Virus record (IMG/VR): IMGVR_UViG_3300049855_000474
Location: 64,001-128,000 of that record
Length of the DNA stretch: 64,000 bases
Direction: 5' to 3' (one strand)
DNA from: a virus
In this document: piece after piece, positions 42,967 through 47,636 of the stretch
How the letters are laid out: each line of letters starts with the position of its first letter
Position numbering within the stretch: position 1 is the stretch's first letter
Translations under genes and position numbers: made by a program
Notes under the pieces: model-generated
The model's database searches: none
What the model was told of the DNA's origin: nothing
Seen by the model: the letters and a program-made list of their open reading frames with translations, nothing else

Positions 42967-44094
42967 ATGCCTGTTAAAGGATATAGACCGCCTGACGTAG
43001 ACAGGGTCACCACCGATACTGACGTGTTGGATGACTTGGTTCAGCGCCATGTGCGCGAAGACCTACTTCCAATGATCGCACAGAAATCTAGAAATGCCCT
43101 CAATGTTACACCGGTCTACATTGAGTATTTTCAAAGGCTCAAGACAGGCAGGCGCTGTTCTTGCTTTACTGTAGAAACGGATGCAGGCGGTCAATGTCCA
43201 GCCTGCTTTGGTACAGGTATCGTAGGCGGATACACTAAACGTGGTACCAAAACGGAAGTATTTGACGTTACCTACCAAAATGTAGTGGCGGCTAACGTCC
43301 AAGCGGATTACAGTAATAGTACAAGACCTGTTTACTGGACCCTGGTGGATACAGCGGTCTATGGAACCCTAGAGTTTACAGTACAGGTTAATAAAAATTG
43401 TGGTCTTCTGGACGTTTACGAAATTAGAGACTATCAACCTACAGGCACTCTGATTCAGTACTTTGTGAGGGCAGACGACGAAATCAACTTCGTAGCTATG
43501 ACCCGAGCAGCACTAGAACAACGGCTAACAACAAGTTTTCTACATTTCAAAATTACAATAAAACGTAATAGTCCGGCAGCACCTCTACCGAAACTACAAT
43601 TGTTTAGGTTTTCTTATCGGCTGCTTCGTTTGTCTTGTTTGCGTGCGGATATCCCGAGAGTAACAGAAAGCCAAACACTAGAAGAGCTAGGACTCTATCA
43701 AAGCTGGACTAATCAGTCATATTTTCTAGACAACACGCTCAAAAACTGCTCAACCGAGGATTTTCTGATAAACCTACAGGATAATACAAGATGGAAGGTA
43801 AACGAAGTAAAGGGAAATGCTCCACTGAACATCACCTTGTCGTGGGACCTAACTTGCCGTCTTGTTCTTGATACAGAACCTTATGCACTGGTACCAGCAG
43901 GCGTCGTAGATTCGAGTGTTTTGCCTTCTCAATTTATACGTTCTATACAAACTGACAAAGAGATTGTGGAACAGACTCAACTTAATCCTGGGCATTTACG
44001 TCTACCTGGGAACAGGGCGGATCAAACTAACGTCAATCAAAGCCCCGTCGCGCCTGGTATTGCAGATGTGGCAAAACCTAGTCGAAATACGTAA
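42967..44094 (+). CDS. Putative neck / head-closure protein with zinc finger
   Basis: TGRRCSC...CPACFGTGIVGGY, DNTRWKV; AGGAG RBS. Confidence 0.6.
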   Translation: MPVKGYRPPDVDRVTTDTDVLDDLVQRHVREDLLPMIAQKSRNALNVTPVYIEYFQRLKTGRRCSCFTVETDAGGQCPACFGTGIVGGYTKRGTKTEVFDVTYQNVVAANVQADYSNSTRPVYWTLVDTAVYGTLEFTVQVNKNCGLLDVYEIRDYQPTGTLIQYFVRADDEINFVAMTRAALEQRLTTSFLHFKITIKRNSPAAPLPKLQLFRFSYRLLRLSCLRADIPRVTESQTLEELGLYQSWTNQSYFLDNTLKNCSTEDFLINLQDNTRWKVNEVKGNAPLNITLSWDLTCRLVLDTEPYALVPAGVVDSSVLPSQFIRSIQTDKEIVEQTQLNPGHLRLPGNRADQTNVNQSPVAPGIADVAKPSRNT

Positions 44095-44106
44095 ACGAGG
44101 AAGAAA

Positions 44107-44451
44107 ATGGCGACGATTACTATCAAGATAAATACTGCGACAGTACCGGAAAAAGCGGTTATCGTTCTAGGTGATTATCAACACGTCAAAAATTTGAGTC
44201 AGACTGTATCGGTAAACAAACCTCCGGTAGTCAGCACACATCACGGAGTTTCTAGGACACAGGAGTCCTTTATAGGCGGTTTAGTAATCAGTCAGTACGA
44301 GCAATCGTACGACCAGGAAATTTTCAAGCGATGGAACTGGGGAATGATCGCCGAACTAGCCACATTGATTGAGAAAAACAAAGTTTCTGTGAAATTAGAT
44401 GGGGCAGCCCAAACAGCAACCCAAATACGAGCAATGTACACTTCGACGTAA
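44107..44451 (+). CDS. Small putative virion protein
   Basis: 114 aa, GAGG RBS. Confidence 0.5.
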   Translation: MATITIKINTATVPEKAVIVLGDYQHVKNLSQTVSVNKPPVVSTHHGVSRTQESFIGGLVISQYEQSYDQEIFKRWNWGMIAELATLIEKNKVSVKLDGAAQTATQIRAMYTST

Positions 44452-44460
44452 AGCTAAAAT

Positions 44461-44760
44461 ATGAAACCTACATACACCGAGAAGAGCATCGAAGGTATTC
44501 ACTACTTCGCAATGTCAAAGACCGCCGCTGTTTCACAGGTGGTCCTTCGAATTTGTGAACTAGCAATATTGCATCGAGCGCATTTCGGAGATGTCATTCT
44601 TGACTTATCCGATGCTAAAGATTCAGATATCCCTTTACTCAATAGAGCTGTAAAGAAGTTGGTAGCGACCAATAGAAAAGTCGTAACCATAGGCAAACAA
44701 TTTCAAAATATGCCCGTGCATACATCTATACAGTCTGCGGTGTCAGCCTTGAAGGATTAA
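44461..44760 (+). CDS. STAS-like (anti-sigma antagonist fold) protein, degenerate
   Basis: 99 aa; DVILDLS, RKVVTIG and PVHTSIQSAVSAL match the STAS layout. Confidence 0.55.
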   Translation: MKPTYTEKSIEGIHYFAMSKTAAVSQVVLRICELAILHRAHFGDVILDLSDAKDSDIPLLNRAVKKLVATNRKVVTIGKQFQNMPVHTSIQSAVSALKD

Positions 44761-44788
44761 AGTTTTAATGTAACCAGGAGAAGAGCCT

Positions 44789-44986
44789 ATGGCGTACGTT
44801 GTAGTGGATATGGTTAATGATACCGAAGAAATTCTCTGCAGTGATAAATGTTGCGCAAGTTGCAACTGTTCATTAGAGAACTGCACAACCTACGCAGCGG
44901 GGGCTTCGCAGATATGCGTCGATTGCGCCAAACAAGAAGCTGCAAAGTATCATGAACATGTGATGCCTAGGCTTGAAACTTACTAA
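44789..44986 (+). CDS. Small Cys-rich protein
   Basis: CASC...ICVDCA; AGGAG RBS. Confidence 0.55.
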   Translation: MAYVVVDMVNDTEEILCSDKCCASCNCSLENCTTYAAGASQICVDCAKQEAAKYHEHVMPRLETY

Positions 44987-45052
44987 ATTTCCTTTAGTTT
45001 ACTCTTAGCTTAATCTTTGGCTTACCACCTTACACACTAAAGGTGCTCAGCC

Positions 45053-45349
45053 ATGTCTAATACTATTATAGCTCTTGTAAGATGTACAGGATGTGAGGTA
45101 GACAGCCTGGCTCGTATCGTTCTTCAAGAACGTGAAGGTCAACCTTTCCGCTGTATTGAGCCTCCTAGACCCTGGCTATATGTATGGGCTGCTACAAGCA
45201 GTAAAGAAAAAGATTCAGTCTTCGCATGCTGTCGCTGGTGTGCTCGTGATATTATGGCGGAAATCGTCAACACGACCAATGAAAAGATTGTGTACTCCTG
45301 GTGTGAGCAGACACAAGTTAGGGAGCGGTACGAGGTCAAAGATGAATGA
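45053..45349 (+). CDS. Small zinc-finger protein
   Basis: RCTGC...PPRPW...ACCRWC. Confidence 0.55.
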   Translation: MSNTIIALVRCTGCEVDSLARIVLQEREGQPFRCIEPPRPWLYVWAATSSKEKDSVFACCRWCARDIMAEIVNTTNEKIVYSWCEQTQVRERYEVKDE

Positions 45350-45454
45350 GAGTCGTTATATAATTGAAGGATGCGAAAAGTGTATCCAAGGCAGTATAAG
45401 CCTAATACACTAGTAATTTCGAGAACCTCCAAGGAAGGAAGGAGGACGGGGTCA

Positions 45455-45958
45455 ATGACTAAAAGCAAAAAGTCGATTAAGAAAACTCTAAATCGACCGA
45501 AACGTGTTTTGGGTCTTGACCCCGGTTAAATTTGCACCGTGAACTTTGCATTTAGTTTCTTAGTAGACGGCACACTAGAGGAAACTGGTTGGTTAAAGCC
45601 TCAACCGAATGTCACAGATGACGCTGCTTTCCTTAATAACATCATAGAACTAATTCTTAGACTAAAGCCAGATGCCATAATAGCAGAACGCTATATGTTT
45701 CGTGGTATACAGAGCATACAAACTGAGCTAATTAGCCAAATGCTGGGACGCATAGCCATTATCACCAGGTATTATCTAGGTCAAGAATTGTATCAGATTA
45801 CAGCGTCGCAATGGAAAAACTTCTATAAAGTCAAGAAGCTAAAGAACGGTGTATACGACCTGTTCCCAGAAGACACAGAGAGATTTGACCTAATCCACCA
45901 AGTGGACGCTGCCTGTATCGCTAAATACGGACAAGAGCGTTGGTGTTTACTAAAATGA
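45455..45958 (+). pseudogene. ruvC: RuvC-like Holliday junction resolvase interrupted by an in-frame TAA (split, recoded or pseudogene)
   Basis: GGAGG RBS, ATG 45455, MTKSKK...RVLGLDPG-stop(45527-45529)-IC-TVNFAFS...PDAIIAERY...ITASQWK...HQVDAACIA, all in one frame. Confidence 0.75.
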
Positions 45959-46242
45959 CAGATTTCAACAAAGAATATCCAGCCTGGTCAGTAAATAAAC
46001 AAGAAGCCAAGAAAATTGGGGATCGTTTAGGTGTGGACTGGACAAGATTCCCTATCGAAGAGTTTCAAAAAGGGATTGAAATTGAGTTCGAACACGTGAC
46101 CGACATCGTGGAAGCTGCTCGGATTGCTATTATGCACCTAGTAGAATCTAAAACTTACTACAGGGACTTGGAGAGTGTTGAAAATAAAAAGGTCTCCGAG
46201 CACAGAAAAGTTCTCCTTGCCTTTATTAGGCAAGATCGATAG
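45940..46242 (+). CDS. DUF5661-like protein
   Basis: EFQKGIEIEFEH...ARIAIMHLVE...YYRDL; likely start ATG 45955. Confidence 0.65.
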   Translation: MVFTKMTDFNKEYPAWSVNKQEAKKIGDRLGVDWTRFPIEEFQKGIEIEFEHVTDIVEAARIAIMHLVESKTYYRDLESVENKKVSEHRKVLLAFIRQDR

Positions 46243-46526
46243 TTAAGCTCACCTACCATGTGTAGGTAGAGTAACGGGGTTGTTAGGCAACCCCAGCCTT
46301 TTCACAGCAAGCTAGGCAATAGTGCTGACCTGACGGGTCCTTGCTGTAAAACCGACGTTGAAAAGCGTCCGTTACGGAAACACTCAGCGCCCCGGCAAGT
46401 CTGGTTCAAAGAGTGAGACTCTAATGTCTAGGAGGGAATCATATGGAACTATGTAGTCTAGAGGCATGCAACCCCGAGCCGGCAGGTAAGCAGCAAAGTC
46501 GAGCCTAATATTCCCTGAAAACTTAC
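46243..46526 (+). ncRNA. Candidate large structured RNA, family unassigned
   Basis: At least seven stems, a GAAA tetraloop and G-U pairs favouring the plus strand; ends at a terminator. Confidence 0.55.
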
Positions 46527-46551
46527 AAAGCCCACCAAAAAGGTGGGCTTT
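46527..46551. terminator. Bidirectional terminator
   Basis: aaagcccacc-aaaaa-ggtgggcttt between convergent units. Confidence 0.8.
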
Positions 46552-46558
46552 CCTAATT

Positions 46559-47533
46559 CTAGACAACTCGATTGAATTCCTCTTGAAGAGAGGAGATATC
46601 CACTCGAATAGGACCGTAGTTTTCAATCATGCGATCCTGAATAACCGATGTTTTTTCACTGAAAGCGGCTAACCAAGTAGGCGCCTTACCCACACGCTTA
46701 GTCAAAGCCAGAGAATTATCGGGAACTTCCTCAGGAAATAAATCAGAAAGACCAAAATGCAGATGCTCTTGAAGGAGCCCATTTAGTAATTTAGAGGAGA
46801 GACCTAATGCTTCCTCTAAGTTACCTTGGGTGTTATACTTACGAATGGCCCAATTCAAGACCTCTGTAATCTCAACCCCGCACGAAGATTCCAAAGATAG
46901 GACATGAACAGGCTTAGAAATCGAACAAGAAATACTACAATACTTATACCCATGATCTTCAATAGGAGCTTCGGTTAATGGTTGTTCACAAACAGAACAT
47001 ACAGAAAAATTCAACAAAGTTACAAAACGAGAATCGATCTCATACCCAGAGGTAGTATCTACCGATTCCTGACGTAAGAATAGCAATGCTTTATTGGTAT
47101 CCTCGGTAATTTGCTTATGAGGGGTCCCGAGAATCATGCTCAACTCCAAGGTACTGAGCGTATCTACCTTGTGCTTACTCATATAAACTAAAATACAGTT
47201 TCGTACTCCTGGGTAGGTAGTGTAAAAAGAACAGTCACGAAGAGCACAATCAGTAATAATAGGCTCACCATGAACTTTACACTTGACGTCTCCGACCTTA
47301 GCGCGAGCGGTTTGCCATAAACCTAACTTCTGAAGAGCCGAAACTGCCATATTCTTATCAAATATTGACATAATCTCTAATGATTTAGGCATATTACAAG
47401 CACTACAGGCTTGTAATGCTGGTAAACCACTTTGAGAGAGTTCGGATTCTAGCTGATCGCAAGTTGAACTACGTTCGAGTCCGTGCTTACAAGAAGCATC
47501 TTTTAGTACAGTCAAAGTATATTTTGATGACAT
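46559..47533 (-). CDS. Cys-rich protein with sigma region-4-like HTH (putative transcription factor)
   Basis: Several Cys clusters; TLSTLELSMILGTPHKQITEDTNKALLFLR; second HTH-like LEEALGLSSKLL. Confidence 0.55.
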   Translation of the reverse strand: MSSKYTLTVLKDASCKHGLERSSTCDQLESELSQSGLPALQACSACNMPKSLEIMSIFDKNMAVSALQKLGLWQTARAKVGDVKCKVHGEPIITDCALRDCSFYTTYPGVRNCILVYMSKHKVDTLSTLELSMILGTPHKQITEDTNKALLFLRQESVDTTSGYEIDSRFVTLLNFSVCSVCEQPLTEAPIEDHGYKYCSISCSISKPVHVLSLESSCGVEITEVLNWAIRKYNTQGNLEEALGLSSKLLNGLLQEHLHFGLSDLFPEEVPDNSLALTKRVGKAPTWLAAFSEKTSVIQDRMIENYGPIRVDISSLQEEFNRVV

Positions 47534-47636
47534 ATGCTAGCTTTTACAGTTAATGGTTATATATTTGGGAGGATACCTAACCCTCTTGTCTGTTTATCTA
47601 AAGACAATTCGCCGTTTCAGGAACCAGGAGAAAACA

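Follow-up and report, generated by a model that had tools for sequence, protein, structure and literature searches.

A stop-containing coding gap of 5-9 nt behind the catalytic Asp-Pro-Gly of a predicted phage RuvC-type resolvase: a candidate natural stop-hop

To our knowledge, programmed translational bypass has been established at the bench essentially for T4 gene 60 and for the yeast mitochondrial 'byps', with the gaps of Streptomyces phage phiHau3 standing as a supported candidate. In T4 gene 60, take-off occurs from a glycine codon with a stop codon in the A site, and involves a 5' stem-loop located 9 nt upstream together with a nascent-peptide signal (bioRxiv 10.1101/2024.12.09.627546; 10.1101/2022.08.31.505936). 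The refolding of this 5' stem-loop at the ribosome exit was proposed to drive the forward movement (bioRxiv 10.1101/2024.12.09.627546), and a 'hit and run' origin was described for some gene 60 homologues (bioRxiv 10.1101/2022.08.31.505936). Far shorter gaps, 10 nt in length and following GWG, are found in the terminase of phiHau3, for which the junction peptide was detected by mass spectrometry in E. coli (PMC10732093). Synthetic 9-nt 'stop-hops', in which matched codons flank a stop, have likewise been described in E. coli, and no natural in-frame stop-hop was known according to a 2016 review (PMC5009743).

The gene considered here is situated in a window of 64,000 nt (the whole stretch of DNA that was analysed), which represents bases 64001-128000 of one 153,375-nt phage-like contig with a G+C content of ~45%. 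A head-tail connector gene lies near the resolvase locus, and a nucleotide search of the INPHARED phages returned no match. The window resolvase is not one continuous reading frame, being interrupted by an in-frame TAA directly behind the Gly codon of its Asp-Pro-Gly motif, with a junction of GGT + TAAATTTGC + ACC (Table 1). The initial annotation had described a precise, stop-first insert of 9 nt after DPG, the deletion of which restores a clean gene; the former was borne out by direct reading of the sequence and by gapless homologues, and the latter by the resulting DPG-TVNF, as found in relatives. The edges of the insert are ambiguous by up to 2 nt, given that deletion of 45525-33, 45526-34 or 45527-35 each yields Gly-Thr. 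The two halves had also been called undecayed and furnished with a strong ribosome-binding site, and this description holds, with AGGAGG read ahead of the start, ORF2 open to its TGA and the catalytic residues of AERY and HQVDAA intact.

Table 1. Features of the interrupted resolvase gene, in window coordinates.
Feature	Position	Strand	Description
Leader, ~105 nt	45350..45454	+	From the upstream 98-aa gene to the resolvase start
SD AGGAGG	45440-45445	+	9 nt ahead of ATG 45455
Hairpin enclosing ORF1	45447..45524	+	Start codon sequestered; last base is the first G of the take-off GGT
Hairpin helices	45447-55/45516-24 (9 bp), 45457-60/45512-15, 45462-67/45505-10, 45472-78/45491-97, 45480-82/45487-89		
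ORF1, 24 codons	45455..45526	+	Basic N-terminal tail, strand beta-1 and catalytic Asp (RVLGLDPG)
Proposed take-off codon GGT	45524-45526	+	Last ORF1 codon, after CTT GAC CCC
Coding gap TAA ATT TGC	45527..45535	+	TAA stop 45527-45529; ATT TGC 45530-45535
TGC	45533-45535	+	Landing codon that a hopping tRNA-Gly would need
ORF2, 140 codons	45536..45958	+	From ACC (Thr); ACC GTG AAC TTT GCA; remaining RuvC fold
GTG (Val of TVN)	45539..45541	+	Gene-caller start of the 139-aa truncated product (P0002); possible restart codon
ORF2 stop TGA	45956-45958	+	Overlaps ATG (45955) of the downstream DUF5661 gene
Gap-site flanks			CTTGACCCnGGTTA on the 5' side, ACCGTGAAyTTTGC on the 3' side

The gene product is a predicted RuvC-type Holliday-junction resolvase. 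Its only family match was to PHROG 18317 'Holliday junction resolvase' (E 1.4e-15), and a PDB sequence profile search returned RuvC matches that were marginal only (E 0.46). Recourse was therefore had to a comparison of folds: an AlphaFold2 model of P0003, a gap-free homologue with 79% identity (pLDDT 94.7), retrieved RuvC chains 4ld0, 7w8d, 6s16 and 1hjr as the best Foldseek matches (E 5e-7 to 7e-6), with TM values of 0.6-0.74. The likeness to RuvC resides in the fold of this uninterrupted homologue, which resembles those of T. thermophilus (4ld0), D. radiodurans (7w8d), E. coli (1hjr) and Lactococcus phage bIL67 (4ktw) at TM 0.63-0.74 and a Foldseek probability of 1.00, and in the catalytic set D-E-H-D, represented by D24, E77, H147 and D150 (P0003 numbering) and invariant in 41 relatives. 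It differs from RuvC in showing a sequence identity of only 12-20%, in the failure of Pfam to assign any family to the read-through and truncated window proteins, and, for the window copy, in being an interrupted ORF. All four catalytic residues are kept in the window (DPG, AERY, HQVDAA), the first Asp being encoded by ORF1 and the other three by ORF2. In the P0003 model, strand beta-1 comprises residues 19-24 (RVLGLD) and the following turn residues 25-29 (PGTVN), which places the modelled position of the break two residues past the first catalytic Asp, within the beta1-beta2 turn.

Among relatives, the insert is exceptional. Five aligned full-length relatives show DPG followed by T/V/K, V/R/A and N, with a 3-column gap facing X-I-C; at the DNA level, 12 other loci read GAY CCN GGN with the next codon immediately after, and some 35 relatives carry DPG, two residues and N uninterrupted. 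Further gapped alleles were sought in the protein collection, in 1.84 billion cluster representatives (by HMMER), in IMG/VR, in JGI metagenomes and in GTDB genomes, and apart from the second allele described below, no third interrupted allele was found in any of these; matches of 142-143 aa proved to be proteins simply starting at M-DPG. Within the genome itself, a raw scan for a stop, a short gap and a matched codon gave 1027 matches and was uninformative. When filtered for a short SD-led ORF abutting a long frame, the scan left the resolvase site standing out for the stability of its hairpin (-0.43 kcal/mol per nt); the sole other GGT...GGT match was a normal boundary between two genes, the second of which has an ATG of its own, so that the search for other short stop inserts suggested by the initial annotation yielded no second gap in this genome.

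The public sequencing runs carrying the sequence comprise one DNA run (X1) and no listed RNA run. A Logan contig of X1 (26,353 nt, depth 53) is identical to window 45000-46400, with 0 differences and no indel; it is a separate assembly of a run that is possibly the source of the record, and does not constitute independent sampling. As this separate build reproduces the insert, an assembler slip is ruled out. Of the two ideas that had been put forward together, assembly error falls away, and a recent pseudogene is made less likely by the observations given below. Run X1 may be the source sample. It also holds a second contig (5,261 nt, depth 10.7), a diverged relative of the gene block matching window 45608-46352, the resolvase of which (...ERTGWVDSQD...) resembles the gap-free L003/P0004 over the compared stretch, downstream of the DPG site; a single sediment sample may thus contain a gapped lineage alongside one that is probably gap-free.

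A second gapped allele, locus L002, was found by protein search in a different sequencing run. Its product P0005 (138 aa) is 74-75% identical in protein to that of the window, and its DNA reads GAC CCT GGT-TAGGT-ACC GTG AAT, broken at the same phosphodiester as the window gene. This insert is 5 nt long, begins with TAG and shifts the frame, and in both alleles a stop thus directly follows the Gly codon (GGT TAA in the window, GGT TAG in L002). GGT is repeated exactly 5 nt on in L002, where re-pairing at +5 would resume decoding at ACC to give DPG-TVNFAWS, as in intact relatives. The corresponding TGC of the window matches at only two of three positions, as against the identical GGT of L002, and its mismatch falls at codon position 1, which is usually important for P-site re-pairing. 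The chance of a GGT match for a random stop-first 5-mer is ~1/16, and that of a random insert being stop-first ~3/64; these figures concern two gapped alleles, each known from one metagenomic contig. With lengths of 9 and 5 nt, 4 nt apart, the frame relation is not conserved, in agreement with bypass, and read-through cannot be the mechanism of both. Apart from TA, the inserts have no motif in common (aligned as TA-R...G-Y). As to whether insert and stem are kept among homologues, the alignment gave a divided answer, the insert being missing from all except L002 with its own 5-nt version, and the hairpin recurring in L002 and, in weaker form, in L001 and L012. In databases both gapped alleles are annotated as proteins of 138-139 aa without the catalytic Asp.

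The 9-nt complementarity first noticed between 45447-45455 and 45516-45524 is exact, and it forms the outermost helix of a hairpin in which ORF1 is entirely enclosed. This hairpin has an MFE of -36.2 kcal/mol over 84 nt (z -6.9), and none of 200 dinucleotide shuffles was as stable. L002 folds into the same architecture (z -3.45), comprising an outer GGGUCA/UGACCC helix, a second helix in which codons 2-4 are paired to those for V-L-G, and a hairpin inside these. Weaker hairpins are present in the gap-free L001 (z -2.9) and L012 (z -1.7), and none was found in the gap-free L003, L004, L013, L010 and L011, the most stable hairpins being those of the gapped alleles. About 20 paired nucleotides connect the start region with the V-L-G-L-D-P codons in both gapped alleles, in slightly shifted registers, and the synonymous Leu/Gly codon differences between the two are absorbed by changes close to the start codon. 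The helices were compared by hand from single folds; the architecture is conserved between the window and L002, and strict covariation is not claimed. In view of the weaker versions in L001 and L012, the hairpin probably began as an initiation control of the resolvase, maybe before the gap arose; in T4 gene 49, control is exerted by a hairpin that covers the start site. When GGU occupies the P site, the inner helices stop 8 nt upstream of it, about where the 5' stem-loop of gene 60 lies (9 nt). Local folds at the A site were no better than shuffles (z -0.15 in the window, +0.65 in L002) and offer no take-off stem-loop.

As a separate observation, the stretch 45509-45535, composed of the hairpin foot and TTAAATTT, scores as intrinsic-terminator-like, and the insert may also attenuate transcription in the window phage. 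A terminator as the common function of the gapped alleles was considered and set aside, L002 having no U-tract. Downstream, the resolvase stop and the DUF5661 start overlap as ATGA (45955-45958), and because the same overlap or a near-overlap is kept in relatives, the sequence suggests that the DUF5661 gene is translationally coupled to ORF2. The DUF5661 gene is followed by a non-coding spacer of ~310 nt (46243-46558) that separates it from a convergent 324-aa minus-strand gene, and a strong terminator-like hairpin for the latter is located at 46527-46551. An Rfam search of window 44000-47600, including the resolvase locus and this spacer, gave no match at E<=1.

The best reading of these data, which we hold at about even confidence on the strength of sequence and analogy, is a short stop-hop translational bypass by peptidyl-tRNA-Gly. 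Initiation would take place at ATG 45455 and 24 residues would be made, ending in ...LDPG, whereupon the ribosome would stall, its P site occupied by peptidyl-tRNA-Gly paired to GGU and its A site by UAA. A fraction of ribosomes would then not terminate; the pairing of codon and anticodon would be given up and the ribosome would slide by 9 nt (5 nt in L002), the tRNA re-pairing with a perfect GGU in L002 and with a two-of-three UGC in the window, and decoding would restart at ACC to give a contiguous DPG-TVNF enzyme. The hairpin of ORF1 might refold behind the ribosome and impose a forward bias, in the manner of the gene 60 5' stem-loop, and the basic nascent peptide with its Asp-Pro-Gly end might slow termination. 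Since success of the hop would be partial, production of a potentially toxic nuclease would be throttled by the gap, for which the strong SD and ATG of the gapped alleles would compensate. The stem-aided hop had been one half of a suggestion made initially, and it gains from the matched GGT codons of L002 and from the presence of the hairpin in both alleles; its other half, read-through, does not survive the frameshift of L002 as a common mechanism. The proposal is tempered by the small number of gapped alleles (two), the imperfect landing codon of the window, the lack of a nearby nuclease cassette, the occurrence of weaker hairpins in gap-free relatives and the failure to find a second gap in this genome. 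The window gap is in frame, and the window allele alone does not demand a hop. ORF1 is rich in Lys/Arg, but the N-termini of gap-free relatives are equally basic, and beyond composition it bears no similarity to the KKYK...SIKSSS nascent-peptide signal. The fuller statement, of a natural and selected stop-hop in freshwater phages of ~150 kb that is hairpin-driven, covers 5-9 nt, dispenses with a take-off stem-loop and an endonuclease cassette, and acts as a throttle on a toxic nuclease, is one to which we would accord slightly less than an even chance.

Set beside T4 gene 60, the resolvase locus shows a number of parallels. In both, a Gly take-off codon stands directly before the stop, and the insert falls at an invariant catalytic motif, the Asp-Gly of Toprim in gene 60/Topo2L and Asp-Pro-Gly here. 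Both have a short ORF1 encoding a basic nascent peptide (46 codons there, 24-26 here), RNA structure upstream near the take-off codon (which is not gap-specific here), and, in the case of L002, codons for take-off and landing that match each other, with flanks that are contiguous in insert-free relatives. The differences are nonetheless considerable: the gap spans ~50 nt in gene 60 and 5-9 nt here; there is neither a significant take-off stem-loop nor, 6 nt ahead of the landing site, a GAG mini-SD; the resolvase has no gene for MobA or another endonuclease in its vicinity, and searches of Pfam and PHROGs with the nine flanking proteins gave no nuclease family; the cassette is unrelated in sequence and interrupts another gene; and the landing codon of the window is unmatched. 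Because homology, take-off stem-loop, mini-SD and endonuclease are all wanting and the gene is a different one, the resolvase gap falls outside the gene 60 cassette family.

The phiHau3 terminase is closer in scale, sharing very short frame-disrupting blocks within a conserved enzyme gene, flanks that are adjacent in related phages, take-off after a Gly codon, a 5' stem-loop and SD as proposed stimulators, and a proposed regulatory role; it differs in gene, host range and gap sequences. With regard to the synthetic stop-hops, L002 corresponds to the exact design (GGU UAG GU, with the identical codon 5 nt on) and the window to a 9-nt in-frame version, the difference being that those hops were engineered and of low efficiency.

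The evolutionary setting of the gap bears on whether the gene is alive. The window, L001, L002 and L003 form a supported clade (95/99), in which the ORF2 tree pairs the window weakly with the gap-free L001 (87/94) and not with L002, and gives the gapped alleles tips of 0.21 and 0.17 as against 0.067 and 0.048 for the gap-free ones; both features are compatible with independent insertions and some relaxation. The four closest lineages are deeply diverged, and to much the same degree in every pair, at a nucleotide identity of ~0.68, with third positions 0.2-0.5 identical and pS of 0.7-0.9, near saturation, at pN of 0.12-0.20 in ORF2 and 0.36 in ORF1. Between the window and L002, RVLGLDPG has undergone synonymous changes only (CGT/AGA, TTG/TTA, GGT/GGC, CCC/CCT) and pN is 0.18 in ORF2, neither gapped allele carries private changes at outgroup-conserved columns, and no extra stops, frameshifts or losses of conserved residues were found in either half of either one. 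Gene order at the locus is that of the gap-free relatives.

The 5' ends of the genes set the two groups apart. In both gapped alleles a leader is present that carries a strong SD, and the start is an ATG with GGGTCA just before it; the leaders are partly alignable between the window and L002 (AATACAC, CTCGA-AGGAG, GGGTCA-ATG). Gap-free members of the wider clade have a conserved, SD-less GTTATTTnnTAnnGTGG start (GTG) at most ~15 nt behind the upstream gene, the region being located at L001:1016-1035, L003:1445-1464, L012:1487-1506, L004:1424-1443 and L013:545-564. Elsewhere in the window, the GTTATTTnnTAnnGTGG motif shows no enrichment (one match against 1.8 expected). At window 45353-45373 there is a degenerate copy of the region, GTTAT-ATAATTGAAGGATG, followed by an in-frame ATG at 45371. 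An ORF1 extended to 52 codons from that ATG was considered and rejected, as the leader motif common to the window and L002 is not in the same frame in both, for which reason the leader is probably non-coding. The idea that these two phages exchanged their 5' module recently was likewise dismissed, nucleotide identity being flat along the gene (~0.56-0.76) for all pairs. The common 5' module suggests one old origin of the gap with a compensatory strengthening of initiation, which would be unexpected for a dead gene, and a single old origin appears somewhat more likely than two independent insertions. Both scenarios argue against an ordinary pseudogene: under a single origin, because the halves would have stayed intact and constrained while synonymous sites became saturated, and under two origins, because both inserts would have struck the same bond stop-first, with one of them recreating the take-off codon.

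That the resolvase is nevertheless dead in both phages, the centre of a GGTACC-type palindrome and the foot of the hairpin having attracted small insertions as a hot spot, is an explanation that we regard as unlikely while granting it real weight. The insert-free flanks are palindromic (CGGT/ACCG in the window, GGT/ACC in L002 and a 10-bp palindrome in the gap-free L003), the hairpin ends at the insertion site, the gapped tips are about three times longer than their gap-free neighbours, the landing codon of the window is imperfect, and the gap is found in just 2 of ~35 relatives. A hot spot does not, however, readily supply a same-bond, stop-first pair of which one recreates the take-off codon in register (of the order of 1e-3 to 1e-4 by simple counting), and it must also contend with two halves free of further lesions, with a strong SD and ATG that both gapped alleles have and gap-free relatives lack, and with the gapped allele being the one assembled at depth 53. 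Termination followed by re-initiation at GTG 45539, 9-12 nt on, would instead produce a 24-aa peptide and a 139-aa fragment, acting as a split enzyme or as a junction binder that does not cut. This would make the frame relation irrelevant, fitting the unequal 9 and 5 nt, and would agree with the protein-level constraint on ORF1, with the GTG found at the equivalent codon in both gapped alleles and with its choice by gene callers (P0002, P0005). The main fragment would, however, lack strand beta-1 and the invariant first Asp, the core of an RNase H-like fold, and we know of no RuvC that works in two pieces. L002 does have AGGT 4 nt upstream of its GTG, but the window GTG has no SD, the same GTG serves as a Val codon in the gap-free L001, and a restart does not predict that the GGT codons of L002 should match. 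We consider it improbable.

Read-through of UAA by a near-cognate tRNA, in the window allele only, would give DPG-x-I-C-TVNF, the beta1-beta2 turn being lengthened by three residues. In its favour, the 9-nt insert is in frame and lies in a surface turn (model residues 25-29). It is inapplicable to the 5-nt frameshift of L002, and the turn has a fixed length across ~35 relatives. The claim that TAA is a normal stop elsewhere was confirmed, TAA being the commonest stop at the ends of 137 long ORFs genome-wide (TAA 64, TGA 50, TAG 23), in a genome whose tRNA genes are Asn, Phe and Lys only, with no suppressor tRNA. A known read-through context or 3' structure is also absent, and the chance of this explanation appears slim indeed. 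Least credible is removal of the insert at the RNA level, as a micro-intron or by editing, or its origin as a sequencing or assembly artefact. Such accounts can draw only on the insert being precise and in register; against them, the X1 build holds the same insert at depth and without indel, and the L002 version comes from a different run. The micro-intron proposed at the outset found no support, given the lack of an Rfam match and inserts alike only in TA, and no splicing mechanism known to us excises 5-9 nt from bacterial or phage mRNA.

Should the stop-hop by peptidyl-tRNA-Gly prove true, it would represent a near-minimal bypass of three recognisable ingredients, namely a Gly take-off codon, a stop in the A site and an upstream hairpin, with a gap of 5-9 nt. 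Such a minimal set would allow a direct test of which signals are sufficient for take-off and landing, with the window and L002 providing a natural pair of unmatched and matched landing codons, in frame and out of frame, respectively. If gaps of this kind were common in the enzyme genes of phages, many 'truncated' phage genes would be mis-annotated.
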